Origin: Centroscyllium fabricii
Lineage: Eukaryota
Assembly: GCA_051313645.2 (NCBI GenBank)
Contig: JBNRSN020000003.1
Span: 359,910,001-359,974,000, forward strand
Direction: 5' to 3'
DNA: 64,000 nt
Under the pieces are notes generated by a model. The model was not told where the DNA came from and ran no database searches. It was given only the letters and a program-made list of their open reading frames with translations. The position numbers were made by a program, and so were the translations under genes. Shown here piece after piece: positions 4,001 through 64,000 of the stretch; within the stretch, counting starts at the first letter, position 1, and each line of letters begins with the position of its first letter.

Positions 4001-5419
4001 GTCCACAATGGGTATGGCTGAAGCCGACGTGTGCTTTTGTGTGTGTGTGTCCCCTGCTGGTTGGGGCTGCACACAAAATGGCGGCGCCCCTGGCTCGCAC
4101 ATGGTGGGGCCCTGGAGACAAAATGGCGGCGCCCCTGGCTCGCACATGGTGGGGCCCTAGAGACAAAATGGCGGCGCCGAGGGGTCGCACATGGCGGGCC
4201 ACTGGGGACCAGATGGCGGCGCTGGGGGGTCGCACATGGTGGGCCACTGGGGGCGAGATGGCGGCGCCCGTGGTTCGCATGCGGCTGACCGCTGTAAGCG
4301 CGCTGGCGGCACCCATGTTTCGCACGCAGCGGGCCGCGGTGACTGGGTTGGCGGCGCCTGTGGTTCGCACACAGCGGGCCGTGGTGGCTGGGTTGGCGGT
4401 GCCCGTGGTTCGCACGCAGCGAGCCGCGGTGGTCGGGTTGGCGGTGCCCGTGATTCGCACGCAGCCGGCCGCATTGGGTCTGCTGCTGGCGTTGGGGGGT
4501 CGCGCTTGGCCGGCCTTTGCCGCCTCGGGGTGGGAGATGGGGGCGCTTTCCTTCTACCCCCGGACCGTCGCTGGATCGCGCTGCTATTGCAGCTTACCTG
4601 AGGTCTGTCGGAGCTTTCACAGGCTGCGCTGTTGTACCTGGAGTTGGGCGCTGTTGGTGCTGATCTGCAAGCCTTTGCGTAATATCCCTTCTTGGCCCAC
4701 CTCTCACAGGTCGCGGTCCTTGCTGGGCATCTCGCTCTCGGGTGCAGTCCCTGGCTGCAGAAGTAGCAGCGTTTGTCTTTTGTGGCTGTCGCAGCCATCG
4801 TGGGGGTCTCGACCTGTTGTGGTGCTGCCCAGGCCTGGGTCCATTGTGGCGCGGCCCACATGCCGTAGGCCTGCGGGTTTGTGCCGCTGTACGTGTGTAG
4901 TTTGTTGCGTGCTCCTTCCCTGGAGTTAGCTATAGCAATCGCGTCTTCGAGAGACAAGGTGGCTTTTTCGAGCAGCCGCTGGCGGGCTTCCACGCACCTT
5001 AGGCCAGTTACATACGCGTCTCGGACGAGGGGGTTCGCCTCCTCTTCTGCTGTCCGGGCTTGGCAGCCACAGACCCGTACCAGGGCCTGGAGCGCTTGCT
5101 CAATTTGTTCATTAGTCTCACCCGGTAGTTGTGGTCTGGTCGCGAGCACATGTCTGGCGTAGACCGAATGGACCGGGCGCTCGTCGCATTTCCTCAGCTT
5201 TTCCACTGCCCCTGGGTAGGTTTTGGCGTCTCGGATGAGGGAGAATACTCGGCTGGAGATCCTGGACCGGAGAACCTGTAGCTTGTTCCCGTCGGTTGTA
5301 GCCTTGGCGGCGTCCATATAGGCCTCCAGGAGACCGAACCAGTGTTCGAACGTGGTGGCGGCGGCAGGGTCCTGTGGACTGATATCCAGCTTTTCTGGCT
5401 TTACTGCACCGCTCTCCAT
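1064..5419 (-). pseudogene. Gypsy A gag-pol (CCHC-like knuckle, protease LFDTGS, RT YLDN, RNase H, integrase), disrupted
   Basis: ORFs 4157-5419 (gag), 3584-4147 (protease) and 1064-3505 (RT-RH-IN) are collinear with the single ORF of Gypsy B. There is a premature TAG at about 4157 and a frameshift near 3580. Confidence 0.93.
4060..4480. repeat. 42-45 bp tandem repeats in the Gypsy A gag-protease linker
   Basis: About 9 units such as AAAATGGCGGCGCCCCTGGCTCGCACATGGTGGGGCCC, translating to repeated CEPxAPP peptides. Confidence 0.9.
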
Positions 5420-5445
5420 TTTAAAAAACTTTAAGTGATTAAAAT

Positions 5446-5725
5446 TGACGTATCGTCAATATCTCAGACTAAAAGACTCAACGAGTAGTTACCGTAACTA
5501 TAGGCTTTTAATCACTTACTTAGGATCTACCCTCCGAATGAACATCTGAGCAGGAATGAGGGAGCCTCAGTCAGTCTCCACCTATAAAGGCCTCACCTGG
5601 GGGAGGAGTTAGAGGTGTGGCTGACCTGGCTCCCGACAGTGTTACAGGACTGTGTATCACACATACACAGCCAATTATTGGCAACAAGAATACAGTGGTA
5701 CAACATAACATTATGGGTTACCACA
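5446..5725 (-). repeat. 5' LTR of Gypsy A
   Basis: Direct repeat of 799-1078; gag ATG lies 27 nt further on, at 5419. Confidence 0.95.
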
Positions 5726-7862: not shown

Positions 7863-8773
7863 CCCAGCACCAGTGCAGATACTCAAATCTCGGTGGGACC
7901 TTTGGGACATAGATTAGTGTTGTCACAGCTCACAAGTGAGCCTCAGCAGATTGTGGGGACAGGGACAGCAGTGGAGAGTCCTAGTCGGAGGGCGCAGGAC
8001 TCTGCCAGCTCAGCTCAGCTGCATGTTGACCCTCAGCCTCTGGGTCCATCCGTTAGATCAGAGGTGATGGTACTCCAGGAACAGATGCAGGAGTCTCTGG
8101 CAGGTTTTGTCTCCAGGGTCACTGCGAGTGTGGAGCGAATGGAGGAGTCCATTGCGAACATGAGCAGAGCCTTTGTGGAGTCAGTGGCGCATGAACGCAT
8201 CACCACGGAAAGGATGGCTTCCTATGTGGAAATGATTGCTGACTCTGTGGTAAGGCTGGCTACCACAGAGGAGAGGATGGTTGCGGTAGAGGAGAGGAGG
8301 GCTACGGTCATGGAGGAGGTTAGTTGCCAGGGTATGGAAAACATGGTGAGTGTTCAGAATATAATGACATTTCTTGAGGCACGATGGGTGTGACCTGAAA
8401 TAACGTCCTCGGAGGCGAGTAGTTAGTTAGAAACAATAAGGCTTTTATTCACTACACTGGAACATGCACCAGTTAGTCGACTGTCCCCAGGAATGCTTGG
8501 GGGATGGGAGCAGTCACTTATCTACCTCCTCCAGGGAGGGAGGAGTTATGGGCGGAGCCAACCTGGGCATGTCCCAGTCATCACAGCATAGTACAGGCAT
8601 AGTACAGGTATTTACATGGTTACATCTTAATACATAATAACTACTATATACAGTGATAAACAGTTTATCACATTCACCCCTTCTTTAAAACGAAAGTCCG
8701 GCGGGGTGAATGGCCAGTGAGTGGGAAAAAGAAGAAAGAAAAAATTTTAATAAACGAGAAAAGTTCTTTTCAG

Positions 8774-11700
8774 CTATAGATTAAGTCTTGCTGGCAGTTT
8801 TGATGTCCGCGTCGATCTTCGCACCGCTGGAGGTGCCTGTGGTGTTGGTGGTCGAGGCGTGGCTGGCCGTGTCGGTTGCTGTAGCGGTGTCGGTGCCGGT
8901 TGATGAGCAGTAATGCTACTTCTGGGTGGCGGTGGTGCCCTTATTCTGACAGCAGGGGGCGCGTTCTCTCCTTCGTCCTCTGACTCTAGGGGGCGCGCGC
9001 TGTGGATCCAAGCTTGGGGCCAGGTCGTGCTGCTCGCAGGTGCCATGCGGACGTACTGGGGTACTGGGCCCACGTGTCGGGGAGCGTACTTTGGCTTCGG
9101 CGGCATGGGGAGCGTCACAGGACGTTTTGGGCGCGCGGGCTGCTGGGCGGGGCTTCTTGGAAGTGCGGGCTGCCGGGCGGGGCTGGGTTTGGGGACTCCT
9201 GCTGGGGCTAGATCCTTTATGGACATGGTGTCCTCCCTCCCATCGGGGTACGCTATGTACATGTACTGGGGATTGGCGTGCAGGAGGTGGACCCGTTCGA
9301 CTAGGGGATCTGCCTTGTGTCCCCTCACATGCTTCCGAAGCAGGACCGGTCCCGGGGATAGTAGCCACGATGGTAGCGAGGTCCCGGAAGCTGACTTCCT
9401 TGGGAAGGCAAAAAGTCTTTCGTGAGGGGTGGCATTAGTGGCAGTACACAGGAGGGACCGAATAGAGTGGAGCGCTTCAGGGAGGACGTTCTGCCATCGG
9501 GTGACTGGGAGGCCTTTAGACCATAGGGCTAACTGGACGGCTTTCCAGACCGTGGCGTTCTCCCTCTCTACCTGCCCGTTCCCCCGGGGATTGTAGCTGG
9601 TAGTCCTGCTAGTCGCGATGCCTTTCGCTAGCAGAAACTGACGCAGCTCGTCACTCATAAAAGAGGCCCCCCGGTCACTATGGATATAGTTGGGGTACCC
9701 GAACAGGGAGAAGATGCTATTAAGGGCTTTGATGACGGTGGCGGAGGTCATGTCCTGGCAGGGAATAGCGAAGGGGAAGCGGGAGTACTCATCGATTATG
9801 TTGAGGAAGTACACATTCCTATTAGATGAGGGAAGGGGCCCTTTAAAATCGACACTGAGTCGTTCAAAGGGGCGGGTGGCCTTAATCAAGTGCGCCCGGT
9901 CGGGCCGGTAGAAGTGCGGCTTGCACTCCGCGCAGACCTGGTAATTGCTGGTCAGGGTCTTGACCTCCTCGATGGAGTAGGGGAGGTTGCGGGACTTCAC
10001 AAAGTGAACCAACCTGGTGACCCCCGGGTGGCAGAGGTCATTGTGAAGGGTTTGGAGACGGTCAGCCTGTGCGCTGGCACAGGTACCGAGGGATAGGGCA
10101 TCTGGGGGTTCGTTAAATATCCCGGGCCTGTACAAGATATCATAATTGAACGCAGAGAGTTCAATTCTCCACCTTAATATCTTGTCGTTCTTTATTTTAC
10201 CCCGTTCCTTGTTGTTAAACATGAATGCGACTGATCGTTGGTCAGTCAGTAGGGTAAAATGTTTGCCGGCCAGGTAGTGCTTCCAATGCCGCACTGCTTC
10301 AACAATGGCCTGGGCCTCCTTCTCGACTGAGGAGTGACGGGTTTCGGGGCCTTGGAGGGTATGTGAAAAGAAGGCCACGGGTCTGCCCGCCTGGTTAAGG
10401 GTGGCGGCCAGGGCAAAGTCAGATGCATCACTTTCCACTTGGAATGGGACAGACTCATCCACAGCGTGCATCGTGGCTTTGGCAATATCGTTTTTTATTC
10501 TGCAGAATGCCGAGTTGGCTTCTGCAGAAAGGGGAAAAGAGGTCGATTTAAGTAGTGGGCGAGCTTTGTCCGCATAGTTAGGGACCCACTGGGCATAGTA
10601 GGCGAAAAATCCCAAACACTGTTTAAGGGCTTTGGGGGAGTGGGGGAGGGGAAGCTCCATGAGGGGGCGCATGCGGTCCGGGTCTGGACCGATGACTCCA
10701 TTCTCCACCACGCTGCCGAGGATGGCCAGACGGCCGGTGCTAAATACACATTTCTCTTTATTGTACGTTAGGTTCAGGGTTTTGGCAGTGTGGAGGAATT
10801 TTTGGAGGTTGGCGTCATGGTCCTGCTGATCATGGCCGCAGATGGTCACATTGTCAAGGTACGGGAAAGTGGCTCGCAGCCCGTACCGATCAACCATTCG
10901 GTCCATCTCCCTTTGGAAGACCGAGACCCCATTCGTGACGCCAAACGGAACCCTAAGGAAGTGGTAGAGGCGACCGTCAGCCTCAAAGGCTGTATAAAGA
11001 CGGTCCTCTGGGCGGATGGGAAGCTGGTGATAAGCCGATTTGAGATCAATCGTGGAGTACACTTTAAATTGGGCGATTTGGTTCACCATGTCCGCTATCC
11101 GGGGGAGAGGGTAGGCATCTAGTTGGGTGAAGCGGTTTATGGTCTGACTATAGTCCACCACCATCCTGTTCTTCTCCCCGATTTTTACTACTACTACCTG
11201 CGCTCTCCAGGGGCTATTACTGGCCTCTATGACCCCCTCTTTTAGGAGACGCTGTACCTCGGATTTTATAAATGCCATGTCCCCAGCACTGTAGCGCCTA
11301 CTTTTGGTGGCGACGGGCTTGCAGTCTGGGGTGAGGTTGGCGAAGAGGGATGGAGGGGCAACCTTAAGGTTCGAGAGGCCACAGGTAGTGTGCTGGGGGT
11401 ACCGCATTGGGCTGCGGTTTCTGACCGTGAGTGAGGGAAGGGTTCCGCCGAATGCCATCGTAACGCTCTGGAGGTGGCACTGGAAATCCAGTCCCAGGAG
11501 TAGGGGGGCGCAGTGCTGCGGCAGCACGTAAAAGCTAAAATCGTTAAACCTTGCCCCCTGGACATTAAGTGTTACAACGCAGCGCCCGGTGACGTCAGCA
11601 GATTCCGACTTGGACGCCATAGATATTCTCTGGCGCGCAGGGATTACTCTAAGGGAGAGGCGCTTTACAGTGTTAGGGTTTATGAAACTTACTGTGCTTC

Positions 11701-13025
11701 CGCTGTCGAACAGGCACACCACCTCTTGACCGTTGACTTCCACCGGCATCATAGATTTCTCCAGCGGTTGAGTCTTCCTCTGGTCGATGGTCATCGATGC
11801 TAACACAGGGTCCTCCAAGTCGTCTTGATCCGGAGAGTAGTCCTCCGAGGCCGCTCCCCAAGATGGCTGCCGCCATGCGGTGTACTGTGGAGGGGGAGGC
11901 TGAGTCCAAGATGGCCGCTGTTGCTGCTGCTGCCACGAGGGATGCTGAGTGGGGGATGGGTGAGCCCAATATGGCTGCTCCCATGTTCCACACGCGGCGC
12001 TGCCCGATTTTGATTTTATGCTAGTGCTTTTACCGACCTTCGCATAATGTCCTTTCTTGTCACATTTCGAGCAGATCGCTTCTCTAGCAGGGCAGCTGCG
12101 TCTTGAGTGCTGAGACTGCCCACAAAAGTAGCATTTGGCTGCCATTTTCGCGTGGGCAGCTGCGATTAGTTCTTCTGCCGGTCGTTGCGCCGGCACTGTC
12201 CAAGATTGCGGGGATGGGCCTGTATAGTTGCTGGAGTATGAAGATAAGTCCGTTGAGGCCCTATCCAGCGCATGCCCCAAGTCTGTAGTCGCCTGTAAGT
12301 CCAGGCCGTTCTGCTCCAGCAGTCTCTGCCTGACATAGTCTGATTTTATGCCTGTTACGTAAGCGTCTCTGATGAGGCTGTCTACATGGACCGGGGCCGT
12401 TAGCGCCCTGCAGTCACAGTCCCGCGACAGTATTCTGAGGGCTCTTAGGAACTCCACACTTGACTCACCAGTTTGTTGCTTTCTGGTGGCAAGTATATGT
12501 CTAGCGTGGACTATATTCGGTGCCCGATTGTACTCAGTCTTGAGAATCCTGATGGCATCCTGGGACGATGAGGTGTCCATTATCATGGAGTACACCTGAG
12601 GGCCCACCCGGGTGTTGAGGAGTCGCCGTTTGTGCTCATCGGTCACCACGACCGCTGCATTGGCTCTGAGGTACCCATTGAGCACACTGTGCCAGTGTGT
12701 GAAGGCGTTCGATGCTCATAGAAACATAGAAACATAGAAACTAGGAGCAGGAGTAGGCCATTCGGCCCTTCGAGCCTGTTCCGCCATTCAATGAGATCAT
12801 GGCTGATCATCCAAACACAGTACCCCGCCCCTGCCCCCTCCCCATATCCCTCGATCCCTATCGAGCCTCCATCGACACATATCCCACCCTATCCCCGTAA
12901 CCCCACATATTTAATCCCCCTAACACTAAGGGTCAATTTATCCTGGCCAATCAACCTAACCCGCACATCTTTGGTGATCGGGGATCCAATTCGAAAACTG
13001 CTGGCTTGAGCATAGTAGTATCCAT
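8774..13025 (-). CDS. Gypsy B single gag-pol polyprotein; N-terminus interrupted by a SINE
   Basis: Uninterrupted 1303-aa ORF (8774-12685) with zinc knuckles, LFDSGS protease, YLDN RT, RNase H and HHCC/DDE integrase. The true start MDTTMLKPAVFELDPRSP at 13025 lies beyond the SINE. Confidence 0.9.
12717..12974 (-). mobile_element. 5'-truncated V-SINE inserted in Gypsy B gag
   Basis: Matches the 3' part of SINE 7027-7438 and ends at CCAAAGATGTGCGG. No clear TSD. Confidence 0.92.
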
Positions 13026-14392
13026 TTTCACATTAGTGAATAAAATTGTGAGCTGAAATAACGTCCTCGGAGGCGAGTAGTTAGTTAGAAACAATAAGGC
13101 TTTTATTCACTACACTGGAACATGCACCAGTTAGTCGACTGTCCCCAGGAATGCTTGGGGGATGGGAGCAGTCACTTATCTACCTCCTCCAGGGAGGGAG
13201 GAGTTATGGGCGGAGCCAACCTGGGCATGTCCCAGTCATCACAGCATAGTACAGGTATAGTACAGGTATTTACATGGTTACATCTTAATACATAATAACT
13301 ACTATATACAGTGATAAACAGTTTATCACAATGGGCATCTATTCAACAGGGAAACCAGACCTTCATGGAAGTCCTTCTGAGTAGGACTGCCATTGCAGAT
13401 TCGGGTCCCCATGGCCCCCCTGATGTGCAGCAAGGTGCTCTCCAGCCACTTGCAGGCGCTGAGGGGGACCTGACCCATGAGAGGGAGGTTGGTGGCTGAC
13501 CTCAAGAAAGTGGGGGCTCCTCTCCAAGCACTCACACTTCCATGCCATTGCAGAGCCCTCGGTCAGAGCCCCACCAGAGTCCACACACAGGTGAGATAGA
13601 CATCTACACTCCTGCACAGCCACAGGAGCAGCAGAGTGCTGACGAGCCATCACAGCCTTAGCATCCCAGAGGACACCTGCCAAAGGTGTCGAGACAGGAG
13701 CAGCAGGAAAGTGAACCTGGGACCTCCACATCTGCTGAAGCCACAGGGGAATCACTATGTAGGAGCATGCGTAAGAGAAAAATAAAGCACTAATATTCAC
13801 AAGGGTAGTCACTTGGGTGAAATTTGATGTTTAATGTGTGAAGGCCATCAGCTGGTTTCTGTACATAAACAAATCTGATGGCAACTGCTGCAGTTGAGGC
13901 GTATCTCATTTCGCGAACGGGGCTTTAACTTTGAGGGCTTACAATTACTTGCAGTTGTGAGGCTGCTGGTGAAATAGCTAGGGATCCACAGGGTTCGGAC
14001 ATTGTAATTGCTCAGGGAAGAAGCAGCGAGGCTACAGTGTTTGATGCACAAGGCTAAGCAAATCTGCCCAGCATAATTGTGTTCCTTGCATCCCAGGCAG
14101 CAATGTTCTCGCGTACAGCTGCCGCTGGTTGATGGGCCTCTGAAGGATGTTTGTTTTTGCCCTCCTCCTCATCATCATCATCCTCATCTGAGGAGGGTAT
14201 GTGAGGAGCCACTTGGTTCTCAGGAATCTGCAAGCCACAACGCTGTGCCATGCTGTGAAGTGCACACCAAACCACGATGATTTTGGAGACCCTGGCTACT
14301 GAGTACTGGAGGTCTCCACCAGATCTATCCAGGCATCTGAAGTGTATCTTCAGCAAGCCGATAGTTTGCTCGATAATGCATCTGGTGGAAAT

Positions 14393-16502
14393 CATAGAGT
14401 CATAGAGTAATACAGCACAGAAAGAAGCCCTTCGGCCCATCGCGTCCGTGTCGCCCATCAATCCCAGTCTATACTAGTCCAATTTTCCCGCATTTGGTCC
14501 GTAGCCTTGTATGCTGTGGCATTTCAAGTGCTCATCCAAATGCTTTTTGAATGTTGTGAGGGTTCCCGCCTCTACCACCCTCTCAGGCAGTGAGTTCCAG
14601 ACTCCAACCACCCTCTGGGTGAAAAAGTTCTTCCTCACATCCCCACGATACCTCCTGCCCCTTACCCAAAAATTATACCCCCTAGTTATTGAACCCTCAA
14701 CCAAGGGAAAATGTTCCACTCCACCCACCTTATCTATTACCCTCATGATTTTGTATACCTCAATCAGGTCCCCCCTCAGCCTCCTCTGCTCCAAGGAAAA
14801 CAACCCCAGCCTCTCCAGTCTCTGCACCCTCTCCAAAGACATTACATCCTTCCTATAGTGTGGCGACCAGAACTGCACACAGTACTCCAGCTGTGGTCTT
14901 ACCAGCGTGTTGTACAGCTCCATCATAACCTCCCTGCTCTTATATTCTATGCCTCGGCTAATGAAGGCAAGTATCCCATATGCCTTTTGAACCACCTTAT
15001 CCACCTGTCCTGCTGCCTTCAGGGACCGATGTACCTGCACACCAAGGTCCCTCTGATCCTCTGCCTTCCCTGCCTTCCCTAGCGTCCTACCATTCATGGT
15101 GTATTGCCTTGCCATGTTAGACCTACCGAAATGCATCACCTCACACTTTTCAGGATTAAATTCCATTTGCCACTGTTCCGCCCATCTGACCAACTCATCT
15201 ATGTCGTCCTGCATGTTGCGGATTTCCTCCTCAGTATTTACCAACCCCCCAACTTTTGTGTCATCTGCAAACTTACTGATCATGCCTTTTACATTAATAT
15301 CTAAATCGTTAATATAGACTACAAACAGCAAGGGACCCAACACCAATCCCTGCGGTACCCCACTGGACACAAGCTTCCAGTCACAAAAACAACCTTCGAC
15401 CATCACCCTCTGCCTCCTGTCACTAAGCCAGTTTTGGATCCACTGTGCCAAGGTGCCCTGGATCCCATGGGCTCTTACCTTTTTGACCAGTCTCCTATGC
15501 GGGACCTTATCTAAACATAGAAACATAGAAACATAGAAGATAGGAGCAGGAGCTTTCAGGGCCTGGAGACTTATCCACTTTTAAGCCTGCTAAAACCGCT
15601 AGTACCTCCTCCCTGTTAATACTAATATGATCAAGTGTATCGCATTCCTCCAGTCTGATTTCAATGTCCACATTGCCCTTCTCCACAGTGAACACAGATG
15701 CAAAAAATTCATTCAAAACCCCACCTACATCCTCTGGCTCTACACAGAGATTCCCACTTTGGTCCCACTTTGGTTCCCTCGTTATCCTCTTGCCCTTAAT
15801 ATATTTATAAAACATCTTAGGATTTTCCTTTATTTTGCCTGCCAGGGTTATCTCATGGCCCCTCCTCGCTCTCCTAATTTCTTTTTTAAGTAACCCCCTG
15901 CACCTTCTATACTCCTCTAGAGCCTCCTCTGTCTTTAGTTCTTTATGTCTGCCGAAAGCCCTCCCTTTTTTCCGAATCAATTCACGTATATCCCTTGACA
16001 TCCAAGGTTCCCTGTGCTTATTGGTCCCACCCTTGACCTTACGGCGAACATGTTTCCCTTGCACTTTCTCAATTTCCTTTCTGAATGCCTCCCACTGTTC
16101 TGATGCGGACTTTCCTTCTAGTAGCTGGTCCCAGTCTACTTGGGCCAGCTCCAGCCTTATCATATTAAAATCGGCCTTGCCCAATTTAGAACCTTTATTT
16201 CTGGTCCATCGTTGTCCTTTTCCATTACTACCTTAAATATTACCGAATTATGGTCACTGTCCCCAAAGTGCTCTGCTACTGACACTTCTTCAACTTGCCC
16301 GTCCTCATTTCCCAGAATTAAGTCTGATACCGCCCCCTCCCTTGTAGGACTTCCTACATACTGGCTCAAAAAGCTCTCCTGGATGCACTTTAAAAATTCT
16401 GCACCCTTAAGCCCTTCACACTTTGGCTATGCCAGTCAATATTGGGAAAGTTGAAATCCCCCAATATTACTACCCTATTATTTCCACACTTCTCACTCCC
16501 AC
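14393..16502 (-). mobile_element. 5'-truncated CR1 LINE (end of EN, part of RT, 3' UTR)
   Basis: GVPQG, KFADDTK and FGDSDHN motifs; tail (CTCTATGA)n at 14393; TSD AAAT at 14389-14392 and 16503-16506. Confidence 0.93.
15513..15552 (-). mobile_element. 40-bp SINE/CR1 tail fragment at an internal deletion of the CR1
   Basis: CTCCTGCTCCTATCTTCTATGTTTCTATGTTTCTATGTTT on minus joins KSPGP directly to DKVPHRRL. Confidence 0.85.
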
Positions 16503-18290: not shown

Positions 18291-19035
18291 AATATGGGCC
18301 TTTAATTCCAACTACTTTTAAAGCAGCCAAAAATAATTTCTTATAACCCAACTAAAAGCTGTGAAATTTGTGCATACTTACTCTGGTTTGACCTAAGTAG
18401 CATGTATGAAGTCTATATTTGGATCATTTATGTGTTAAGAGTTTTAGTGTGGGGATCACTTAGATGACCAGCATTGTTATGCTCCTCTCTTTCAGTGATG
18501 TGCACAGTGCTGAGCTCCACTCTCCGTACCGCGCCAACATCTTATTAATGTTAACAGGCACCCTGCCGGCTGCTGTTGGCCATCACTGAGAAATTAACTC
18601 TTAGAGTGTCATTCTTGCCATGTTATTGTTTCATTTGTTACCATGGGGAAACTCTACCCACCAATGAAGGAGAAACAAAAGAAGTTGATTCGCAAAGTCA
18701 TGGTTAAAACAAACTCATTAGCTTAATGGGTCTGTGAACACATTGCTTCAGTGAAAGCAGAAACCGAAAGAACCTGACTGCTACGCTTGAGTGCCTGCAA
18801 AATAAGACGTACTAAGTTAAGGGCTGACCACTGCCTGTGTATTTCTGGCGTAAAAGGGAGTCTGTTCACCGGCTGCAAACGTTTGTCTTCTGTTCCTATT
18901 CTGAGGAAAGGCATGAAAGAGTTGAACACTAGCAGAAAATTAGACTCATTTTTAATGCATTAATAAAACTTGGCAATTCAACTTGCAACGAATTCAAGGA
19001 CAAGCTGTTTGTGAGAAATGAAAAGCACCTTGACA

Positions 19036-20920
19036 GTACACCCATACATACACACACACGGATACATGTACACCCATACATACACACACGGATACATGTA
19101 CACCCATACATACACACACACGGATACATGTACACCCATACATACACACACACAGATACATGTACACCCATACATACACACACGGATACATGTACACCCA
19201 TACATACACACACACAGATACATGTACACCCATACATACACACACGGATACATGTACACCCACACATACACACACACGGATACATGTACACCCATACATA
19301 CACACACACAGATACATGTACACCCATACATACACACACGGATACATGTACACCCATACATACACACACACGGATACATGTACACCCATACATACACACA
19401 CACAGATACATGTACACCCATACATACACACACGGATACATGTACACCCATACATACACACACACAGATACATGTACACCCATACATACACACACGGATA
19501 CATGTACACCCATACATACACACACACAGATACATGTACACCCATACATACACACACGGATACATGTACACCCATACATACACACACACGGATACATGTA
19601 CACCCATACATACACACACACAGATACATGTACACCCACACATACACACACGGATACATGTACACCCATACATACACACACACAGATACATGTACACCCA
19701 TACATACACACACGGATACATGTACACCCATACATACACACACACGGATACATGTACACCCATACATACACACACACAGATACATGTACACCCATACATA
19801 CACACACGGATACATGTACACCCATACATACACACACACAGATACATGTACACCCATACATACACACACGGATACATGTACACCCATACATACACACACA
19901 CAGATACATGTACACCCATACATACACACACGGATACATGTACACCCATACATACACACACACAGATACATGTACACCCATACATACACACACACAGATA
20001 CATGTACACCCACACACTCACACACACAGATACATGTACACCCATACATACACACACGGATACATGTACACCCATACATACACACACACAGATACATGTA
20101 CACACACACATACACACACACAGATACATGTACACCCATACATACACACACGGATACATGTACACCCATACATACACACACACAGATACATGTACACCCA
20201 TACATACACACACACAGATACATGTACACCCACACACTCACACACACAGATACATGTACACCCATACATACACACACGGATACATGTACACCCATACATA
20301 CACACACACAGATACATGTACACACACACACTCACACACACACAGATACATGTACACCCATACATACACACACGGATACATGTACACCCATACATACACA
20401 CACACAGATACATGTACACCCATACATACACACACACAGATACATGTACACCCACACACTCACACACACAGATACATGTACACCCATACATACACACACG
20501 GATACATGTACACCCATACATACACACACACAGATACATGTACACCCATACACTCACACACACAGATACATGTACACCCATACATACACACACACAGATA
20601 CATGTACACCCACACACTCACACACACAGATACATGTACACCCATACATACACACACGGATACATGTACACCCACACACTCACACACGGATACATGTACA
20701 CACACACACACACACACACATACACGCAGATACATGTACACACACACAGACACATGCAGACACACACACACGAAGATACATGTACAGACACATGTACACA
20801 CACAGACACATGCAGACACACACACACACACACGAAGATACATGTACACCCACACAAACAGACACATGTACACACACAGACATATGCAGACACATGTACA
20901 CACAGACATGCACTCACACA
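19036..20920. repeat. CA-rich minisatellite (30-34 bp unit)
   Basis: Unit GATACATGTACACCCATACATA(CA)n tandemly repeated for about 1.9 kb, decaying toward the right. Confidence 0.97.
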
Positions 20921-23900
20921 CAAACTAAGGGTCTCTTTGTCTCTGTGTGTACAGCTGTCCAGAAACATTATTGAGTCCAAAAGTACAACACACTGAGTCT
21001 GCAGGCACAGGATGAGTAGTTACATTGTTGCTTCCACCTCACTTTAACTTCTGCTCAAACCAGTTCCATCTGTCACCTCTATGTACAGCGTCGTAGCCTT
21101 TGGCAAAGCAATGTCGAGCCCAGCTGCAGCCGCTACCTGTGTGTTCTGAGCTGAGTGTATGCTATGTCATCTGAACCGTGTCCTGCCAATGTCACAGAAA
21201 CTCCTATTTATTTGTGAAGGGATATTAATTCCAGGCAATTGAAGAGTCCCTTTGCCATATTGTCTGGACCTCGCAACACATCTAACAATAAACAACAGAC
21301 AAGCATACAAACAAATGTAGGCAGTTTGTCTTGAAATCCAATGAGCCACCCACTCACGAGAGTTTAAGTCCTTATACACACAAAGAGCTATTGCCAGTTC
21401 CCCACCCCCCCTCAAAAAGTCAGATCCTTGTCATTATATCTGAGTTTGGGGTATTGGTAGTGAGGAAGCTTCTCCCATGATGCAGCCTGATAAGGATTGG
21501 CCTACATGTGGCCCAGCATGCTGCTGCTGATGTTTCCTTGATTAGGTGTCTTATCTTCCACGAGCTGCATCAGATGAAGGCTGCTGACAGCGTAATGGCT
21601 GGGAAAGCATCGGACGGCTCCATAAAATGGCAGCTGTGTTATGACATGTCAGCCAGGACTTGGTGGATGGTGAGTTGGCAATGATAAGACTTTTTTTTGT
21701 AGAAATGTTTCCCCCCTCCCTTATTGTAACAATTGAAGTGTTATCAGTCGAAAAGCAGAAGTACACAATTTGTGAACAAATTAGAGCGATGATTCCGTAA
21801 CGCCTTCCCAAACCACTCGTAGGGCCAGTGTACTACAAGGCTTTGTCTTCTCTTGCACAGAGGCACAGGACCTTCTATTTGTTTGAAAGGGCAGACAAGG
21901 CATAATCTTTCTTGGAAAATATAAATGCAAATTTAACAGTGTGCTTCAAATTGGCGTGTGCGACTGAGGAGTGGGACCGTTTCAAATCAGAGCCCTCTGT
22001 GTCATAACTCTTTTGATTAATTGCTCCGGAGTTGATCAACTCACTTTTGGGTCAATGTTCATGCTTTTATTGACTTTGCTCACTGTCTCTCCCCACCCCA
22101 CCCCGACTCACACACCCCACTCTCTCTCTCCCCCTCTCTTTCTCTCGCTCAAGCCTCTATTCAATGAACTTTACTTGGACTGTGCTGCTCAACCACTCGT
22201 TCTGTATTCCATCATACAGCCCCACGCTTCAACTAATTTAATGTGCTTTCCTTTATAATGAGAACAGTATTCAAGCCATCGCTAATTAATACGCTGTTTG
22301 GCCTCATTATTTATTTGTTAATGAGGCCATGCATATTCAGCCTGGGTGTCTTTGTTGCTGCAGGGCAGCTTTAATTGTTTCGAGCTCACATAACCCCCAA
22401 AACAAAGTCCCGCTTAAAAAAAAGCAAGTTCAATTTTTACAGTGGTCAGTAGGAGCAAAACTTTTCTTCCTCGCACAAGCAATACATTACATTTTCTGCA
22501 TGCTTTCATTTGTAATTCAGACAATAGTCCCTTGTATACTCACTCTGATTGTAAATGAAAACCTTCTGCTGGCTGGCATTCCGTTATGAATATTAATTTC
22601 ACTCTTAGGCTTGCTTTGTCCAAAGGAGTAATTTCTAATTCCTTCTCATTGAAATTGCTTGTTTGCCTCGATAATTATTATGCTTACTGCATCGTCTGTT
22701 TTTTCACAATTAGTAATGTGTTGAGACAATGGGAACTTTATTCCTGTCCAGCGGGTAAGGAGAGAACAAGTGAGCTGTGCAACCAAGTGCCTAGGTGGAA
22801 TGCATCTCTCTGACTGTTATCTCCCTACATTGTTCTTGCAAAGATTAGCCTTGTTTTAGTAAATGCTGGAAGTTGGTATTTTGCAGTTCACGGATGTTGG
22901 AATATGGAGCATTTGTGCTTTTGGGTCTTTGATTCAATGCCTCTTTTTGCTTTGTTGTTTGCATTGGTTGAGCGTCTGTGTAAAACCATAGAAGACATGG
23001 AAACAGGGGATCAAACTGCCTGTTGCTAGTTGAAGTGCTCGAACAAATTGTTACTGTTCAACACATTTTTATGGAATTGCTCACGAACAGGCAATTTTCT
23101 GGGATGTAGTAACATTGTTTTGAATCCCTTGTGCTATGGAGATTTGTTAAGTATTTGGATGAATGTTTGGATTTTGTCTTTTCCTTTTGACAATGTTTAT
23201 CTTTGAGTTTTTCATAAAAAAACAAGTTTAACTGTGCATGTCATACTTTGGATGCAATAGACTTTTCTGAGATATTTGAAAGGTGAGAATGTTTGTTTTA
23301 AAGCATATGTATAATATTGAAATGACCTCTGTTGTAAAACTGTTAATACTATTCTGCAGACATCTTAAAAAGGTTTCATTCATTGTAGATTCTCAGCAAT
23401 TTAGTGCAAAAATTAACTTCATTATTTTCACTGAGAGTATTTATTTATCAAAAATCCCTTTATCAAAATGAATGTTTGAAGCGTCAATGTTGAATGAACT
23501 GCATTCATTCAGTTTATTTTAGACTTCTTATTCTTACGTAAGCTGTGTACAATTTGTGAAGTGTTTGGTTGCTTTTCCAAATTCACTATTTTCTCTGGGC
23601 TTGGCATTGAATTAATAAGTTTAGAACGAAGCTCCATTGAGAACCCGGGTGCTGCCCATTCGTACTAAGATGCTGATCTGTCTGACCAAACTGCTGTTAC
23701 AATACAATACATTTCAGTCAGCTACCCAGTTACTGTTGCAGGCTTTTGAAAAATTATTACTGTCATATTCTAATGATAAATCTCAAAACAATTGATAAAC
23801 CATATGCAAGTACTTGTTCATGTGTGTTATTAATAACAGTAGAAAGCTCAGATACAGGATCTTTCTATATTAATGAAATGTTTCACAGTTATGAGGATGC

Positions 23901-31958: not shown

Positions 31959-34900
31959 ATTGTATACCTTGGCTGAACACTGTAACTACAGAGCTTTGCA
32001 TGATGAACTGATTAGGGACAGGGTGGTTGTCGGGCTCGCAGACGTGCGCCTGTCAGAGAGAATGCAGCTGGATAAAGACCTCACGCTAGAAAAAGCGATG
32101 GCAATGGCCAGACAGATGGAAGCAGTGAGACAGCAACAGTGCAACCTGCGGGGAGAAAATACTAAGGAGACATGCTCTGTGGATAAAGTCGTGAGTAAAG
32201 GCAAACAATTTCATAGAAATAAGAAGTTTAACAAGCCAAACAAAACGTACACAGAGAAAAATAAGGCACAGTCAAAATCATGCTTCAAATGTGGAAACAG
32301 TCCCTCACATCCAAAAACGGAGTGCCCTGCTAATGATGTAATGTGTCATGCGTGTGGCAAGAAAGGCCATTTTAAGCGTGTGTGTGCATCCTCCAAAGTT
32401 GTGCACGAGGTACAAGAAGAAGAGGAGGACAGCAGCTTATTCCTGGGCACAGTGGCAGCAGGCGGAGATCCTTGGATGGTGAACCTGAATATCAAAGACA
32501 GAAAGGTCAAATTTAAAATAGACACTGGCGCTGATGTGACTGTTATCCCTGACTATGTGTTTAATGCTGTATTCAAAGGTGACATTCCAAAACTTCAACA
32601 AGCAAAGAGGCCGATACTGGGACCAGGATGCACTCCACTGGATGTCCTGGGAGTCTCAAACATCACGCTACAGAAAGGAGGACAGCAGATACAACAGAAT
32701 AACTCTCAACATGGAGAAATGTGAGTTCTCAGTAAGGGAAGTTAAATTCCTGGGTCACATAATTACAGATGAGGGAGTAAAGTCAGACCCGACTAAAACA
32801 GCAGCAGTAAGAGAGATGCAGGAGCCCACCAATGTAAGTGAGCTACGCAGCTTCCTGGGGATGGTGAATCAGTTAGGAAAGTTTATCCCTCAGCTAGCAG
32901 AAAAGGATAAACCACTCAGAGACTTGCTGTCTAAGAAAAATCACTGGCTCTGGGGAGTCGACCAGGTCAAAGCCTTCAACAGCCTGAAGGAGGAGCTGCC
33001 GAGCACACCTGTGCTAGCTCTGTATGATCCCAACAAAGATAGTAAGGCATCAGCAGACACGTCCAGTACCGGACTGGGAGCGGTCCTGCTACAGAAATGG
33101 GGTGAGGAATGGAGGCCTGTTGCCTATGCTTCCAGATCTCTCTCACCAGTCGAGCAGAGATACGCACAGATAGAAAAAGAGGCGCTGGCGCTGACATGGG
33201 CCTGTGAAAGGTTCAGAGACTTTCTGATAGGCCAACACTTTGAGTTAGAGACAGATCATAAACCTCTGCTAAGTCTTCTGGGGGCCCAAACGTTGGACGC
33301 CTTACACCCCAGGATCCAGCGTTTCAGAAGGAGACTGATGAGGTATTCTAACATAATATCTCATGTTCCTGGAAAAAGCTTGTGGACCACAAACACGCTG
33401 TCACGAGCACCGATGGAGAACAACACAGTAGACACAGACACAGAGCTCATGGAGAGCACAAATATCTATGTGGACAGCATCATGGAGAACCTCCCAGCAA
33501 GCATTTCCTACCTGGACAACCTGAGAGAGCACCTGAAAACAGATGTGTGCTCTACCATCATGCAGATGTGTCGGGATGGATGGCCTGAGTACAACGCATG
33601 TGAGGGAACTTTAAAACTGTACTGGACGGAGCGCGCCTTCCTAACCGTACAGGACGGTCTTCTACTGAAGGGCACAAAGCTGGTCATTCCTTCACCCCTA
33701 AGGAATGATGTCCTCGATAAGCTACATGAAGGACATCAGGGCGTCGTGAAATGTAGGGAGCGGGCGCGACAGAGTGTGTGGTGGCCTGGCCTGAGCCAGC
33801 AACTAAACGAGCTAGTGCTAAGCTGTAGAACCTGTATCAGAGAACGTACAAACCACGCAGAGCCGCTCATCCAGACAGAACTTCCTGACAGACCCTGGCA
33901 AAAGTTAGGGGCGGATTTGTTTGCACTTAAAGGTAAAACCTACCTGCTGGTGGTGGACTATTACTCGAGGTATGTTGAGATAGCGAACCTCACCTTCACT
34001 AAGTCCACTGATGTTACAGTTCATCTCAAATCAATGTTCGCGCATCATGGAATACCTGACACACTAGTGACTGATAACGGGCCGATATTCTCGTGTGGCA
34101 CATTCTCAGCCTTCGCCGCGACATATGGATTCCAGCATGTAACCAGCAGCCCGAGATATCCGAAAAGCAACGGAGAAGCAGAACGTGCTGTTCAGACGGT
34201 AAAGAATCTCCTCAAGAAAGCCATTGATCCATATCTTGCCTTGCTGGCATACAGATCAACGCCACTCCAGAATGGATTTAGTCCTGCTCAGCTGCTGATG
34301 GGGTGCCAGCTTCCCACTACTGTGCCAACCTCTCCATCGTTATTGGACCCAGCACTGCCGAGCAGCACCACAGTTAAGTCGAAGGAGAAGGAGAGAAGGA
34401 GCGCTGATCTGACACGCTACAACAAGCGTCACCGAGCGTCTGATCTCAGCAGTCTCCCATCCGGGCAACAGGTGTGGGTGACTGACGCCAAAGTCACTGG
34501 GACAGTGGTGAATGAACACTCAGCACCACGATCCTACATAGTAGACGTGCCTCAGGGGACTGTACGTAGAAACAGGCACCATCTTATTCCTATTGTCGGA
34601 CCTGAGAGCGTCATGGACACAACCAACTTACAGGTGCCTGCCCAGACACACACTCCTGTGTCAACCCCGAGACCACAAACACCTAGTCTGGAGCACACTT
34701 TCAGAACGATATCTGGAAGACCTGTAGTAAATCCCACTAGATTTGACTTGTGAAAAAAAAATGGTTAAGATAACAACTGGGGGGGAAAGAAACATTGCTG
34801 TGTAAAGAATTGAATGTGGGGAATGCATATCCTGGTCACTGTTTATGGAAAATTCCTTATATAAGGTGTTCTGATAAAGCGAATTATTATGTGACAATAT

Positions 34901-41076: not shown

Positions 41077-42217
41077 ATGGCACAGAGATGCCGACAGAGA
41101 TGCCGACAGCGAGCACCAGTCATGGCCAGGCACAGGAGGGCAGACAGGCGTGTGCGCAGGAGGCCTTACCGTGGCAGGGTTTTTGGCCATCAATACTCAT
41201 GCATGAATATGTCTGAGGAGCAGTGTCTGCGTAGGCTGCGCTTCAGGAAGGAGGTGGTGGCGGAGCTCTGCCAGCTGCTTCAGCCAGACCTGCAGCTTTA
41301 GCAGAGGACCAGGACATCTCTGTCGGTGGCAGTGAAGGTAACTGTGGCTCTGAACTTTTATGCCACTGGCTCCTTTCAGGCAGGTACTGGGGACATAGCT
41401 AACATCTCCCAGTTTGCTGCGCATTGCTGCATCCATCAGGTCACAGAAGCCCTACACAGAAGGAGGCGACAGTATATATCGTTCCCCATTGCTCCGGACA
41501 AGCAACAGGAATGCCATGAGGGGTTTGCCAATGTGCAGGGCTTCCCCATGATGCAGGGCACCATTGACTGCATGCATGTGGCTTTGCGGGTGCAGTACCG
41601 CGATGCTGAGGCATACCGCAACAGCAAGGGCTTCCATTCCCTGAATGTACAGCTGGTGTGTGACCACCGAAAGCTGATGCTCACTTTGAATGCACACTAT
41701 CCAGGCAGCACCCACGATGTCTTCATTCTGCGCGAGACTACTATGGCAGACATCTTCCAGGTACCAAATCACCCAGCTGGATGGCTTCTCGGGGACAAGG
41801 GATATGCCCTGACCAACTGACATGACCCCGCTCCATGCGCCCCAAACCCCTGCTGAGCGTAGATACAACGAGAGCCATCAGGCGACCAGGAAACTCATTG
41901 AGCAGACAATCGGCGTGCTCAAACAATGCTTCCGCTGTCTGGACCATTCTGGAGGGGCCCTCCAGTACGCGCCTGACCGAGTGTCCCACTTTGTCGTTGT
42001 GTGCTGCACGCTGCATAACCTGGCAATCCTCAGGACCCAGCCACTACTGCCAGACATTGTTGCAGCACCAGAGGAGGAAGAGGAGGTGGAAGACGAGGAG
42101 GAGGAGGATGTTGATGAGGAGGAGGAACATCAGGAGCATCAGCAGCAGCCCCAACGCAGCAGGCATGCGGTAACTGGAAGGGCTGTGCGTCAGAGGCTCA
42201 TAGACAGCCACTTCTAG
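41077..42217 (+). pseudogene. Harbinger B transposase (HARBI1-like)
   Basis: QCLRRLRFRKE, FYATGSFQ, GTIDCMHV, HDVFIL, LLGDKGY and IEQTIGVLKQCFRCLD; stops at about 41300 and 41819. Start approximate. Confidence 0.92.
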
Positions 42218-44637: not shown

Positions 44638-46189
44638 GTCGTCGAACTAGGTTCATAGGTGTGGCCACAGCAGCACTCACAGAGGAAGTCAGCAGGGTGT
44701 GCCTGGAATGGGAGGAAGACCCTCACCCTTTAAGATGGCGCCAGCGTTTCTGGGAAGGCGCTGACTGACAGATCAAGCGCTGCACCCGCGTTCGCGGCTA
44801 GCGCTTGAGTTTTCACCATTTGCGCCCTAAGAGTGCCGTGCAATGCCTGGTTTATCGCTGCAATCTCCTACCTGGGCGCTAAACCCGACTATCGGGAAGC
44901 CGGGTGCAAATTTGCACCCGGCGCTAATTTTAGCACTGCGCCCACTGCACCGCCCCAAAACGTGCGCTGACCAATTTAGCCCCCTTAGACTTTAAGAGGA
45001 AGGAAATCCTGGAGAAGCTAAGGATTCCTAGATCTTGGGAAGAATGAGTTGGGATGGACATGTTACAATGACTCTTGATTTCAACCTAGTAAGCATTTAA
45101 AGAGTGGCACGAACATGCAGCATACTATATGACTATATTACTTACATTTCAGTGCAACTATAATCCTAGTAGTATCAATAAAAGAGAGAGTGTCGAGCAA
45201 GCTTGCAATAAGGGAGAGAGTCTGAAAGCTAGAGGTAAGAGAAGCATTGGCTATCAGACTTTTTTTTCGTATCATGCCCAGGATTTTGAGAGAAATAAGA
45301 GCATCCCTTCTCTGGTGGTTCAGTGGATTAAACATTAACGTTTCCTCTCTGGGATCAGGAATAAAATCCATCATAGTATGGTGGGATAAAAGTGTTCTCT
45401 GCTGGCTTTAAGGGCCTTAAGTGAAATGAGTGTGGGTAGTCTTAGTCCAGTTCCTGGTGGACACAGGCCAAAACTCATCAATGCTTCTCGTTTGGCACTA
45501 ATTGCCAATGTTACTCAAGCAGACCTGAGGATGGCTTGTATGGGAAGAGAGGTTTAATGGTTGAAAGTTAACCTCCTGGTCAGGGTGTATTTGAGGACTC
45601 GCCCTGCGGACCCTCCCAATTTCATTACCAAGAAACTGCACCAACCTGTTCAGTCCTTTGATCCCAACATACGTCCGGCCACCTTGTAGCTAGAAGCAGA
45701 AAAAATACAATTTGCTCTTAATATTAGAGCAGAGAGTTGTCCATTAATAAAGATACTAATCTAATCTAGATGATTTAAACAGAGCAGGATAATGCCAGGT
45801 TATTTTGTACAGTTGGGAAGCTAATATATTCATTGCACCTCAGGCCAACTCGTATTAGTCGCAAATCATGGAAATTTGAGTAAAAATCTTACTCATGGTT
45901 AACACAATTCCAACTAATCCATATAACTTCCATTAATTAAAAATCTATTCCGAACAAAAATAAGCCAAAACTGCTGCTGCTTTTAATTAGGTAAAAATGA
46001 TAGTCTGGGACAGTGTAATGAATTTGAGGTACTTAGCTGCTTTAGAAAAATATGCATAAAAAGTTGATGATTCAGAAGCTGCATTACATCCTTTTCATCT
46101 AATTAGTTCATCAGCTGTTGCACAGATTGATATGATAGTTAAAGGGAAAGGGCCATAAACTTTTTTAATGCTGCATAGCTGACAATTGA

Positions 46190-47222
46190 TGGAGAAATTG
46201 TGCTCCATGTAAATGATGGAGATACGGTGCTCCATGTAAAGGATGGATACAAGGTGTTCCATGTAAATGGTGGAGATATCTTGTTCCATGGAAATGGAGA
46301 TATGGTGCTCCATGTAAAGGATGGATACAAGGTGTTCCATGTGAATGGTGGAGATATCTTGTTCCATGGAAATGATAGAGATATCTTGTTCCATGTAAAT
46401 GATGGAGATATGGTACTCCATGTAAATGATGGATATATCTTGTTCCATGTAAATGATGGAGATATGGTGCTCCATGTAAAGGATGGATATATCTTGTTCC
46501 ATGTAAATGATGTGGATGTAAATGATGTAGATATCTTGTTTCATGTAAATGATGGAGATATCTTGCTCCATCTAAATGTTGAAGATATGGTGGTCCATGT
46601 AAATGATGGAGACAACTTGCTCCACGTAAATGATGGAGATATCTTGCTCCATGTAAACGGTGGAGATATTATGCTGATGTCTTGCTCTATGTAAATTATG
46701 GAAATCCGGTGCTCCATGTAAATTATGGAGATATTTGTTCCATGTAAATCGACATAGGGTGTTTCATGTAAATGATGGAGATATCTTGTTCCGTGTAAAT
46801 GGAGATATCTTGTTCATGTAAACAATGGAGATATATTGTTCTATGTAAATGATGGAGATACCTTGTTCCATGTAAATGATGGAGATATCTTGTTCCATGT
46901 AAATGATGGAGATATTTTCTTCCATGTAAATGATGGAGACAACTTGTTCCATGTAAATGATGGAGATATCGCGTTCCATGTAAATGCTGGAGATATCTTG
47001 TTCTATGTAAACGGTGGAGATATCTTGTTCCATGTAAATGATGGAAATAGCTTGCTTCATGTAAACAATGGAGATATCTTGTTCCATGTATATGTTAGAG
47101 ATATCTTGTTCCATGTATATGTTGGAGATATCTTGTTCCATGTATATGTTGGAGATATCTTGTTCCATGTGTATGATGGAGATATCTTTCTCCATGTAAA
47201 TGAGGGAGATATCTTGTGCCAT
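46190..47222. repeat. 27-bp minisatellite
   Basis: Unit TTCCATGTAAATGATGGAGATATCTTG repeated for about 1 kb, with variants. Confidence 0.96.
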
Positions 47223-47389
47223 TTTCCAAAGATTTAGGAATATCAAATAGTATGAAGTAGAATTTGCAAACTGTGGAACCATAAAACATTTCCTAATGGT
47301 CAGTATTTTTGAATGAAAACAAACAAAAAGCATTGACACTCTATATTTGATCTGTATTATTCAGCAGTAGTATTTCACAAACTGGGTTT

Positions 47390-62800: not shown

Positions 62801-64000
62801 CCCTCCTGCAGCCCAGACCCGTCGTCCCCCACGCATGGAGGCGACACATCATCCAGACCCTTCATGGCCTGTCCCACCCTGGCACCCGCGCATCCACTAA
62901 GCTGATTTCGGCACGTTTCGTCTGGCGTGGCCTGCGCAAGGATGTCCGCGCCTGGACCAACGCCTGCACTGCCTGCCAGCGCGCCAAGGTGCACAAACAC
63001 ATCAAGACACCGCTGGAAACGTTCACCATACCAGCTAGACGCTTCGACCACGTCCACATCGACCTGGTCGGACCACTACCGCCATCACGGGGACACACGC
63101 ACGTCATGACCATGGTCGACCGCAGCACTTGCTGGCCAGAGGCAGTCCCACTCATCGCTACCAGCACCGCAGACCTGGCCAGGGCCTTCATCGCCACCTG
63201 GGTCGCGCGTTTCGGCGTACCTGCCGACATCACGTCGGACAGGGGCCCCCAATTGACGTCGACACTATGGGCGACCATCGCCCGCGACCTCGGGGTAACC
63301 CTGCACCGAACCACCGCTTACCACCCACAGGCCAATGGACTCTGCGAACGGTTCCACCGCTCCATCAAAGCTTCCCTGTGGGCCAGTCTGAAGGACGCAA
63401 CCTGGACCGACCGCCTGCCCTGGGTAATGCTCGGCCTGCGCTCAGCGGCCAAAGAAGACCTGCACGCCTCGGCGGCGGAACTCGACTACGGCCAACCTTT
63501 AACCGTACCAGGCGAGTTCCTCGCAGAACCTAACGCTCCCTGGTCAGCTGACCAGTGCCTCAAAGACTTCAACAACCAGGCACGAGCGTTCAAACCACTA
63601 CCGGTGGCCTGGCACAGAGAGCCAGCAGCACGTGTACCGGACGGCATCAAGAACGGCAAATATGTGTTTGTCCGCCACGACGCACATCGAACGCCACTAC
63701 AGCCACCGTACGACGGACTGTACAGAGTGCTTCGGGCGGGAGCTAAGACTCTTGAAATCAAAATGGGCAACAGAACTGAAACTGTCTCGATAGACCGGCT
63801 CAAACCGGCACACGTAATGGCGGGCGAGACAACAGTCCCCGCGCAGCCACCAAAATGCGGACGCCCTCCCGCACCAAAACCCACCCACACTCCCACGCAG
63901 AACAAGGAGCAGCGCATGACACGTGCCGGCCGCATCATCCGGCCACCTCAACGCCTCGCATGAGACTCATTTTTTATTTTCACTTTATTCTCCCTTTTTT
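59819..64000 (+). mobile_element. CsRn1-like Ty3/Gypsy element E (3' LTR beyond the window)
   Basis: 5' LTR about 59819-60067 with AATAAA; PBS TGGTGACCCCG (tRNA-Trp-like) at 60069; gag LPEFW...AWF; then pol. Confidence 0.92.
60109..63963 (+). pseudogene. Gypsy E gag-pol with frameshifts and stops
   Basis: LCDTGA protease, YLDD RT, TTDAS RNase H, and HHCC/DDE integrase with a GPY/F-like PPYDGLY motif, spread over several ORFs. Confidence 0.92.

Follow-up and report, generated by a model that had tools for sequence, protein, structure and literature searches.

Self-priming of reverse transcription is understood from work on one yeast element; for the chromovirus relatives of that element it has been deduced from sequence. 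In Tf1 and Tf2 of Schizosaccharomyces pombe, and in Tj1, Tosmo1-3, Tcry1 and the Tf1/sushi chromoviruses, the primer site is described as complementary to the element's own LTR and not to a tRNA, and the primer as being cut from the genomic RNA (PMC7175516, PMC4600332, PMC10085805, PMC5341516). At Tf1 the RNase H cut falls between bases 11 and 12 (PMC7175516), and the self-primer is reported to be retained and copied into DNA at the 3' end of the plus-strand cDNA in about half of the cDNA (PMC11042837). In plants, self-priming of Tcn1 (Gypsy) and of TAR/Houba/Osr-1 (Copia) has also been deduced from complementarity between LTR and primer site, so the trait is not confined to one lineage. The plant cases were predicted from complementarity alone, and primer length and overlap with a poly(A) signal do not figure in the available part of their description (PMC6317226).

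Here we describe element B, a retrotransposon in a 64,000-nucleotide window (the whole stretch of DNA that was analysed). Its family resembles the Tf1 group in having a primer site complementary to its own LTR and, probably, a primer cut from the genomic RNA. The stem formed by primer site and LTR is real and conserved, and self-priming is very likely its function. The geometry differs from that of Tf1, where the primer consists of the first 11 bases and is paired throughout. In the B family the predicted primer is 51-54 nt, about five times the length of the yeast Tf1 self-primer; it would end in a poly(A) signal, with the paired arm lying about 40 nt inside the predicted RNA and not at its extreme 5' end, as judged from promoter motifs and the end points of fossil copies. 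Our main reading, to which we give a probability of roughly 0.7, is that the B family is primed by the capped first 51-54 nt of its own RNA, cut after an AAUAAAA arm; it draws on genomic sequence and on analogy to Tf1. That the family has no tRNA primer site, and that dozens of mis-copied relatives within one genome carry the first ~52 bases of the predicted RNA in inverted form, makes it likely that copying begins with a long, capped stretch of the element's own RNA. In the literature searched (subscription journals, Repbase and GyDB being outside it), no description of a long self-primer or of a primer arm with a poly(A) signal was found for animal Gypsy elements. New here is the observation that inverted copies are common, that in three family sets they stop where transcription is predicted to begin, and that they carry the C typical of a cap.

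Layout of element B and its affinities

Element B is a young Ty3/Gypsy LTR retrotransposon on the minus strand, with a TG..CA LTR pair, a 5-bp target duplication on both flanks, a polypurine tract and the gene order PR-RT-RH-IN. The features of B, and those of two further elements of the window with the same layout, are collected in Table 1.

Table 1. Positions in the window of the parts of element B and of related elements
Feature	Position	Strand	Basis or remark
5' LTR of B, 284 bp, TG..CA	13047..13330	-	282/284 identical to 3' LTR
3' LTR of B	8389..8672	-	282/284 bases shared with 5' LTR
Polypurine tract of B, before 3' LTR	8673..8686	-	sequence
gag start of B (ATG 13025-13023)	12975..13025	-	sequence
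SINE-like insertion breaking gag in B (family D13; absent from sibling L002; boundaries approximate)	12717..12972	+	
Open gag-pol frame of B, 1313 codons	8774..12715	-	two zinc-knuckle-like motifs, protease, RT with YLDN, RNase H, integrase, without chromodomain
TATA-like box, TAGATAAG in B (TATATAAG in most siblings)	13175..13182	-	first base 30 nt above predicted start; putative function
Predicted transcription start, initiator-like CA, A+1 = 13152	13152..13153	-	motif, TATA spacing, end points of sibling inverted copies
Predicted self-primer, 52 nt, capped 5' end to arm end	13101..13152	-	51-54 nt in all 142 scored events
LTR arm of B, pairs with primer site; AATAAA hexamer at 13107-13102	13101..13112	-	pairing across families
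Predicted cut in B (AAAA|GCC)	13101/13100	-	geometry and analogy to Tf1
55-nt loop of B: rest of R, U5, terminal CA, one-A spacer	13046..13100	-	putative full template for minus-strand strong-stop DNA
Primer binding site of B, TTTTATTCACTA, without TGG start	13034..13045	-	sequence
Element A, same layout: LTR 5725-5446, predicted start 5557, arm 5518-5506, primer site 5444-5432, loop 61 nt	5433..5557	-	
Third element, same layout: arm 48968-48979, primer site 49031-49042, loop 51 nt	48750-49042	+	

The catalytic motif of the reverse transcriptase of B is YLDN instead of YxDD (residues 619-622 of the protein P0001, window region 10840-10860). Over 121 proteins, YxDN was found in 91 and YxDD in 23, and 7 were unmatched. 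YxDN and the stem are not coupled, as both stems with YLDD (2) and stemless loci with YLDN (5) occur among 42 loci. The nearest named homologues over RT-RH are shark and ray proteins (76-85%), followed by cnidarian, insect and nematode proteins (60-64%), the hosts being sharks and rays, a sea anemone, a damselfly, Trichuris and Trichinella. From this ranking, the DNA probably comes from a cartilaginous fish. No chromodomain was matched by Pfam at E<=0.01 in P0001 or in any of the 24 members of alignment A1, member 1 of which covers the RT-RH part only. The double zinc knuckle of the B family is one that we take to be Mag-like, and together with the host range of the homologues it fits a broad non-chromoviral clade of animals.

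Compared with Tf1/sushi elements, the B family has mostly YxDN in its reverse transcriptase, a 55-nt loop, and no clear counterpart of the three-duplex pretzel described for that group (PMC10085805). The family appears to work in the manner of Tf1, but the missing chromodomain and a paired arm that is predicted to lie away from the RNA's 5' end keep it out of the Tf1/sushi group. The Cigr-1 clade is reported from Ciona intestinalis and molluscs (PMC6238403), and the RT motif of the family had no match in the supplement files searched of PMC6238403 and PMC8556966. CsRn1 and Saci-2 are described as having a tRNA-type primer site, a CHCC or CCCH Gag motif and a 4-bp target duplication (PMC2582038, PMC12471100). 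Membership in either clade was ruled out by the primer type (no TGG site), the 5-bp duplication and the CCHC-type knuckle. Relatives of family B were not found among the viral contigs searched. Animal-type retrotransposons were seen on seven contigs of bacterial genome bins (L251-L257), where they are probably host DNA.

A conserved stem between the LTR and the primer site

In element B, TAGTGAATAAAA at 13034-13045 has its exact reverse complement at 13101-13112, with 55 nt between them. One A at 13046 separates the LTR CA from the primer-site arm, and the gag ATG lies 22 nt beyond the last LTR base. In these respects the original prediction was exact, though it had missed the poly(A) hexamer within the LTR arm. 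At 12 pairs, the stem of B is one pair shorter than that of most siblings (13-14). The LTRs of A and B had also been called largely dissimilar, with the pairing conserved and the sequence not. They proved to be 60% identical with shared blocks (shuffles: mean 52%, maximum 55%), and their 12-nt arms match at 10 of 12 positions, both differences being compensated in the primer site. The contrast between pairing and sequence was therefore overstated for A against B alone; across the wider family it holds.

Retention of the stem by siblings had been set beforehand as a test. At 56 primer sites scored within loci L001-L060, the stem is perfect over 12-14 bp in 49, longer in 3 and shorter in 4, and in the subfamilies of the same genome changes in the arm are matched by changes in the primer site. 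Relatives were taken from metagenome and genome contigs (87 loci, 46 of them with a gag start and 42 with enough upstream DNA). A perfect stem of 11-19 bp was present in 34 of the 42 and no perfect stem in the other 8. The stem ends always lie 1-3 nt from the LTR CA, and the spacer is a single nucleotide in 29 of the 34 stem-bearing relatives. As several loci were copies of one family, the test was redone on 30 distinct primer sites, anchored without use of the pairing. With their own LTR, 22 pair perfectly, 4 with one mismatch and 4 poorly, and perfect pairing with another element's LTR was seen in just 3 of 870 cross pairs. The same stem search at 1260 internal positions of related elements gave 9 bp in 6 cases and nothing longer, so the stem is not a product of chance. 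An AT-rich stem that is weak in folding is what one might expect of a coincidence or an artefact of palindromic host DNA, and yet the cognate-only pairing, the internal control and the stems of the siblings (49/56) refute this explanation, which can for practical purposes be dismissed.

The weakness in folding is apparent from several measures. The AU-rich stem is missing from the minimum-energy fold of the predicted leader both of B (133-143 nt) and of A, and its mean pair probability is 0.60-0.69 in B and 0.30 in A. Fold z-scores of four B windows were -2.4, -1.6, -0.9 and +0.2, so that whole-leader folding does not single out the stem, and the energy of the stem duplex is about -11 to -12 kcal/mol. 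Given this weakness in the folding models, chaperoning by Gag would be needed. When the main stem was enforced, the models gave an imperfect U5 stem in B and hairpins in A, and no duplex between the loop and the stretch downstream of the primer site. Adjacent to the primer site, the final 14 bases of A-type LTRs can form, with the spacer A, a perfect hairpin of 6-7 bp resembling a U5 stem (window 5446-5460, minus strand; also at the ends of the C set), which B-type LTR ends do not have. Immediately upstream of the arm, the predicted primer contains another small hairpin, spotted by eye and in the fold (CUGG..CCAG in B, 13113-13128, minus strand; GGAG..CUCC in A/C), which could halt plus-strand copying near the end of the primer site. 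In B and in loci L008 and L026, A replaces the usual C at the stem edge (window 13028-13033, minus strand), which creates an ATG-stop just ahead of the gag ATG.

A self-complementary primer site serving tRNA-free priming, as first proposed, is supported by the cognate-only pairing, the fixed geometry at the LTR end, the absence of TGG and the aberrant copies that bear a primer copy (see next section). The proposal has to be refined in one respect: the primer is probably a capped fragment of 51-54 nt with the arm at its 3' end, and not just the 12-nt arm. The primer site of B is complementary to its own 5' LTR and has no match to a tRNA 3' end. When tRNA fragments were considered as primers, no shared word above 5 nt turned up in a comparison with 9 distinct tRNAs, a small and incomplete set that cannot speak for tRNAs in general (63 of ~816000 candidates were scored and 30 loci taken, among which ARAGORN called 10 tRNAs, 9 of them distinct).

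In 28 of 33 listed pairs the arm has A's at its end and RCC directly after it. AATAAA or ATTAAA lies within the arm in all families of the same genome that were listed and in 21 of 34 relatives. One alternative is that the helix serves to hide the 5' poly(A) signal while another RNA, a tRNA fragment or a small RNA, does the priming. This proposal agrees with the fact that the partner strand is present only at the 5' end of the RNA. It also agrees with locus L169 of another family (G000:C224:122090153), an LTR fragment that begins at the first base of U3 and, ten bases beyond the arm, ends in A11, as a working poly(A) signal would produce. The A11 end is a possible trace of a poly(A) site, seen at one locus (two overlapping matches), and a search for further poly(A)-tailed retrocopies gave this one locus only; if it is such a site, about 10 nt of R would be left for the first strand jump. 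The canonical hexamer is, however, absent from 13 of the 34 stems, and L200 has compensated changes inside it. Masking does not need a stem that ends so close to the LTR CA, an outside primer would have to change together with the LTR of each family, and neither TGG nor a tRNA word above 5 nt was found in the set described. We consider priming by an outside RNA improbable.

Inverted copies and the predicted transcription start

B, A and a third family set each have a TATA-like box 30-31 nt upstream of an initiator-like CA, and this CA lies 51-54 nt above the arm end. Aberrant copies carry information on the same position. In sibling L003 the primer site is prolonged by an inverted copy of the LTR stretch upstream of the arm, after which the sequence jumps into gag. 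Three such run-on patterns gave 126, 18 and 283 genomic matches, and the reversed-pattern controls gave 0. Among the matches listed, 92, 18 and 90 run-ons were examined, 200 in all (L003 was added, and two tandem-spaced duplicates were skipped in the third set). After removal of 5 duplicates, 108 of these were independent events with an intact LTR of their own and a junction. The other 92 did not enter the end-point count: 5 are the duplicates, 35 (34 unique) run to the LTR start, 15 have their promoter on the opposite arm, 26 lack an arm that could be aligned, and in 11 no initiator was recognisable.

The ends of the 108 events cluster at the initiator A, whose position was anchored on the promoter: 38 lie at -2..+2 and 38 at +3..+27, against 8 at -27..-3, 22 further up and 2 beyond +27. 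None of 20000 uniform simulations produced such a 5-nt peak. The peak holds 23 of 51 ends in B-like families and 15 of 33 in A/C-like families (within +/-27), and none of the 15 'flipped' events, with the promoter on the other arm, ends in it. After ends at -1/+1, the next base is C in 15 of 23 events compared with 15 of 58 elsewhere (Fisher p 0.0012), and the excess is seen in each set (8/13 vs 10/34 and 7/10 vs 5/24). Reverse transcriptases are reported to add one extra C beyond the last templated base when the RNA end is capped, but scarcely so when it is uncapped (PMC7370879, which cites Wulf et al. 2019). The best reading of the C after these ends is accordingly that it marks a copied cap, as far as genomic copies can tell. 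The addition has been described in vitro for enzymes used in cDNA libraries (PMC7370879), whereas in the B family it would be a genomic fossil and would concern the primer rather than the template end. Of the 23 scored ends, 10 fall on the C that precedes the initiator A, which calls for either untemplated bases or a second start site.

A hairpin of 5-6 bp surrounds the initiator in B-like LTRs, and none is present in A/C-like LTRs. Priming could be of the plain Tf1 type, with a start at the arm and a primer of 12-14 nt, the inverted copies then arising by fold-back that stalls near the CA. Fold-back clearly occurs, as 34 events reach the first LTR base, and the hairpin of the B-like LTRs would offer a place to stall. 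The A/C families, however, show both the peak and the extra C without a hairpin, on which ground stalling at the hairpin was rejected as the cause of the peak. There is, moreover, no TATA-like box 30 nt above the arm, as there is above the initiator in all three family sets, and if transcription began at the arm, AAUAAA would lie at most 6 nt from the cap. Plain Tf1-type priming is thus very improbable.

Where the junction is followed by the element's coding sequence, the orientation is sense in 49 events and antisense in 7. A polypurine tract precedes the LTR in only 7 of the 108 events, so most of them derive from the 5' LTR position. Inverted copies that end at the predicted start with an extra C are what a retained primer, copied by the plus strand, would leave behind. 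The fossils appear to record copying of a capped RNA 5' end; covalent joining of that RNA to minus-strand DNA is beyond their reach, and a switch of template to uncut capped RNA would look the same in them as a long primer that stays attached.

This bears on an explanation that we regard as unlikely but as deserving consideration, namely self-priming by a short internal piece of the RNA, released by two cuts, or in trans from a second RNA, including the R arm of the 3' LTR. The inverted copies would then reflect switching of plus-strand DNA, finished at the primer site, to uncut capped RNA, with identical end points and the same C. Normal copies pair over 12-14 bp only, and the 3' LTR has the same arm, both in keeping with such a primer. 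It requires, however, an extra cut or a second RNA. Run-off on one attached primer accounts most simply for the distribution of ends, of which 38 fall within the primer, 38 at its terminus and 8 in the adjoining 25 nt of U3.

Loci L091, L099, L100, L138 and L140 have one common junction after the inverted primer copy and, where seen, different 5' flanks, so a deleted element with an extended primer site seems to have been copied again. Contigs from three runs were compared with B and contigs from two with A. Three contigs of runs X5 and X6 (two studies; run type unclear) begin exactly at 13101, the arm end, probably at an assembly branch. Reading such starts as RNA ends was rejected, as on A the listed ends fall at 5508-5510 and not at 5506, and contigs cannot show RNA ends.

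Proposed priming pathway and putative fold-back products

The pathway proposed here begins with the complementarity of arm and primer site, which change together across families. Motifs and end points suggest that transcription would start at the initiator, about 30 nt below the TATA-like box and about 40 nt above the arm. By analogy to Tf1, the element's RNase H would cut at AAAA|RCC and generate a 3'-OH one base from the LTR CA. The 55-nt loop would then be copied, with about 10 nt of R left for the first strand jump. As the DNA fossils show, the plus strand can run past the primer site and through the entire would-be primer to the predicted start, add C, and then jump, mostly into the element's own coding region in sense orientation. 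Finally, fold-back of the plus strand onto U3 may give rise to longer inverted copies and to integrated palindromic mini-elements. A primer copied to the cap would produce a 40-nt tail unable to pair at the second strand jump, and the fossils may represent jumps that failed in this way. An overhang of this kind on plus-strand strong-stop DNA would be expected to impede that jump, which counts against the long primer in normal copies. A plausible second role of the stem helix would be to mask the poly(A) signal, in the 5' LTR alone.

Run-ons into U3 occur in 30 of the 108 events and in all 34 full-length ones. As U3 cannot be templated by the primer, a second process, fold-back of DNA, is needed. 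The 34 full-length events run to the first LTR base, and in 25 of them a perfect 5-bp duplication flanks the copy, from which insertion by integrase follows. Palindromic mini-elements of ~500-530 bp (e.g. L063, L075, L083, L123, L153, L261, L293) consist of a whole LTR, the primer site and inverted R and U3, with TG..CA at both ends. From their structure they look like fold-back products inserted by integrase. In four full-length events (L124, L258, L289 and, by eye, L066) the run-on extends into the polypurine tract.

Mini-elements with two U3 ends and target duplications (25/34) are also easily drawn if the 3' arm does the priming, and the four run-ons into the polypurine tract fit such priming as well. 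These run-ons are, however, also explained by fold-back onto plus-strand DNA still bearing its polypurine-tract primer, and we retain the long capped primer as the preferred reading.

Taken further, the long capped primer leads to a wider proposal, which we offer tentatively and at somewhat less than even odds. One helix would do two jobs, masking the 5' poly(A) signal in the nucleus and being cut in the particle to yield the capped 52-nt primer. This would be the own form of self-priming of a widespread non-chromoviral animal Gypsy lineage, and it would spawn integrase-inserted palindromic mini-elements with two U3 ends and a 5-bp duplication, a route to MITE-like inverted repeats. Were an animal lineage lacking a chromodomain to use a long capped primer, this would point to a separate or a much older origin of self-priming. 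The capped-primer reading also bears on the proposal that hairpin priming preceded tRNA priming (PMC3601003). Self-primed elements would offer no tRNA-complementary site for silencing by 3' tRNA fragments. The approach is reusable, in that failed genomic insertions map the start site and primer of a retroelement without RNA data.

Apart from the elements with this layout, the window contains two Gypsy-type pol remnants, a LINE-type RT and a fragment of a Harbinger-type DDE transposase (31960-34753, 60459-63963, 14474-16232 and 41302-41820). Tandem arrays with units of 14-18, 27 and 45 nt are present at 18880-21000, 46184-47300 and 4028-4342, and the array with the 45-nt unit (4028-4342) sits within the gag frame of element A.
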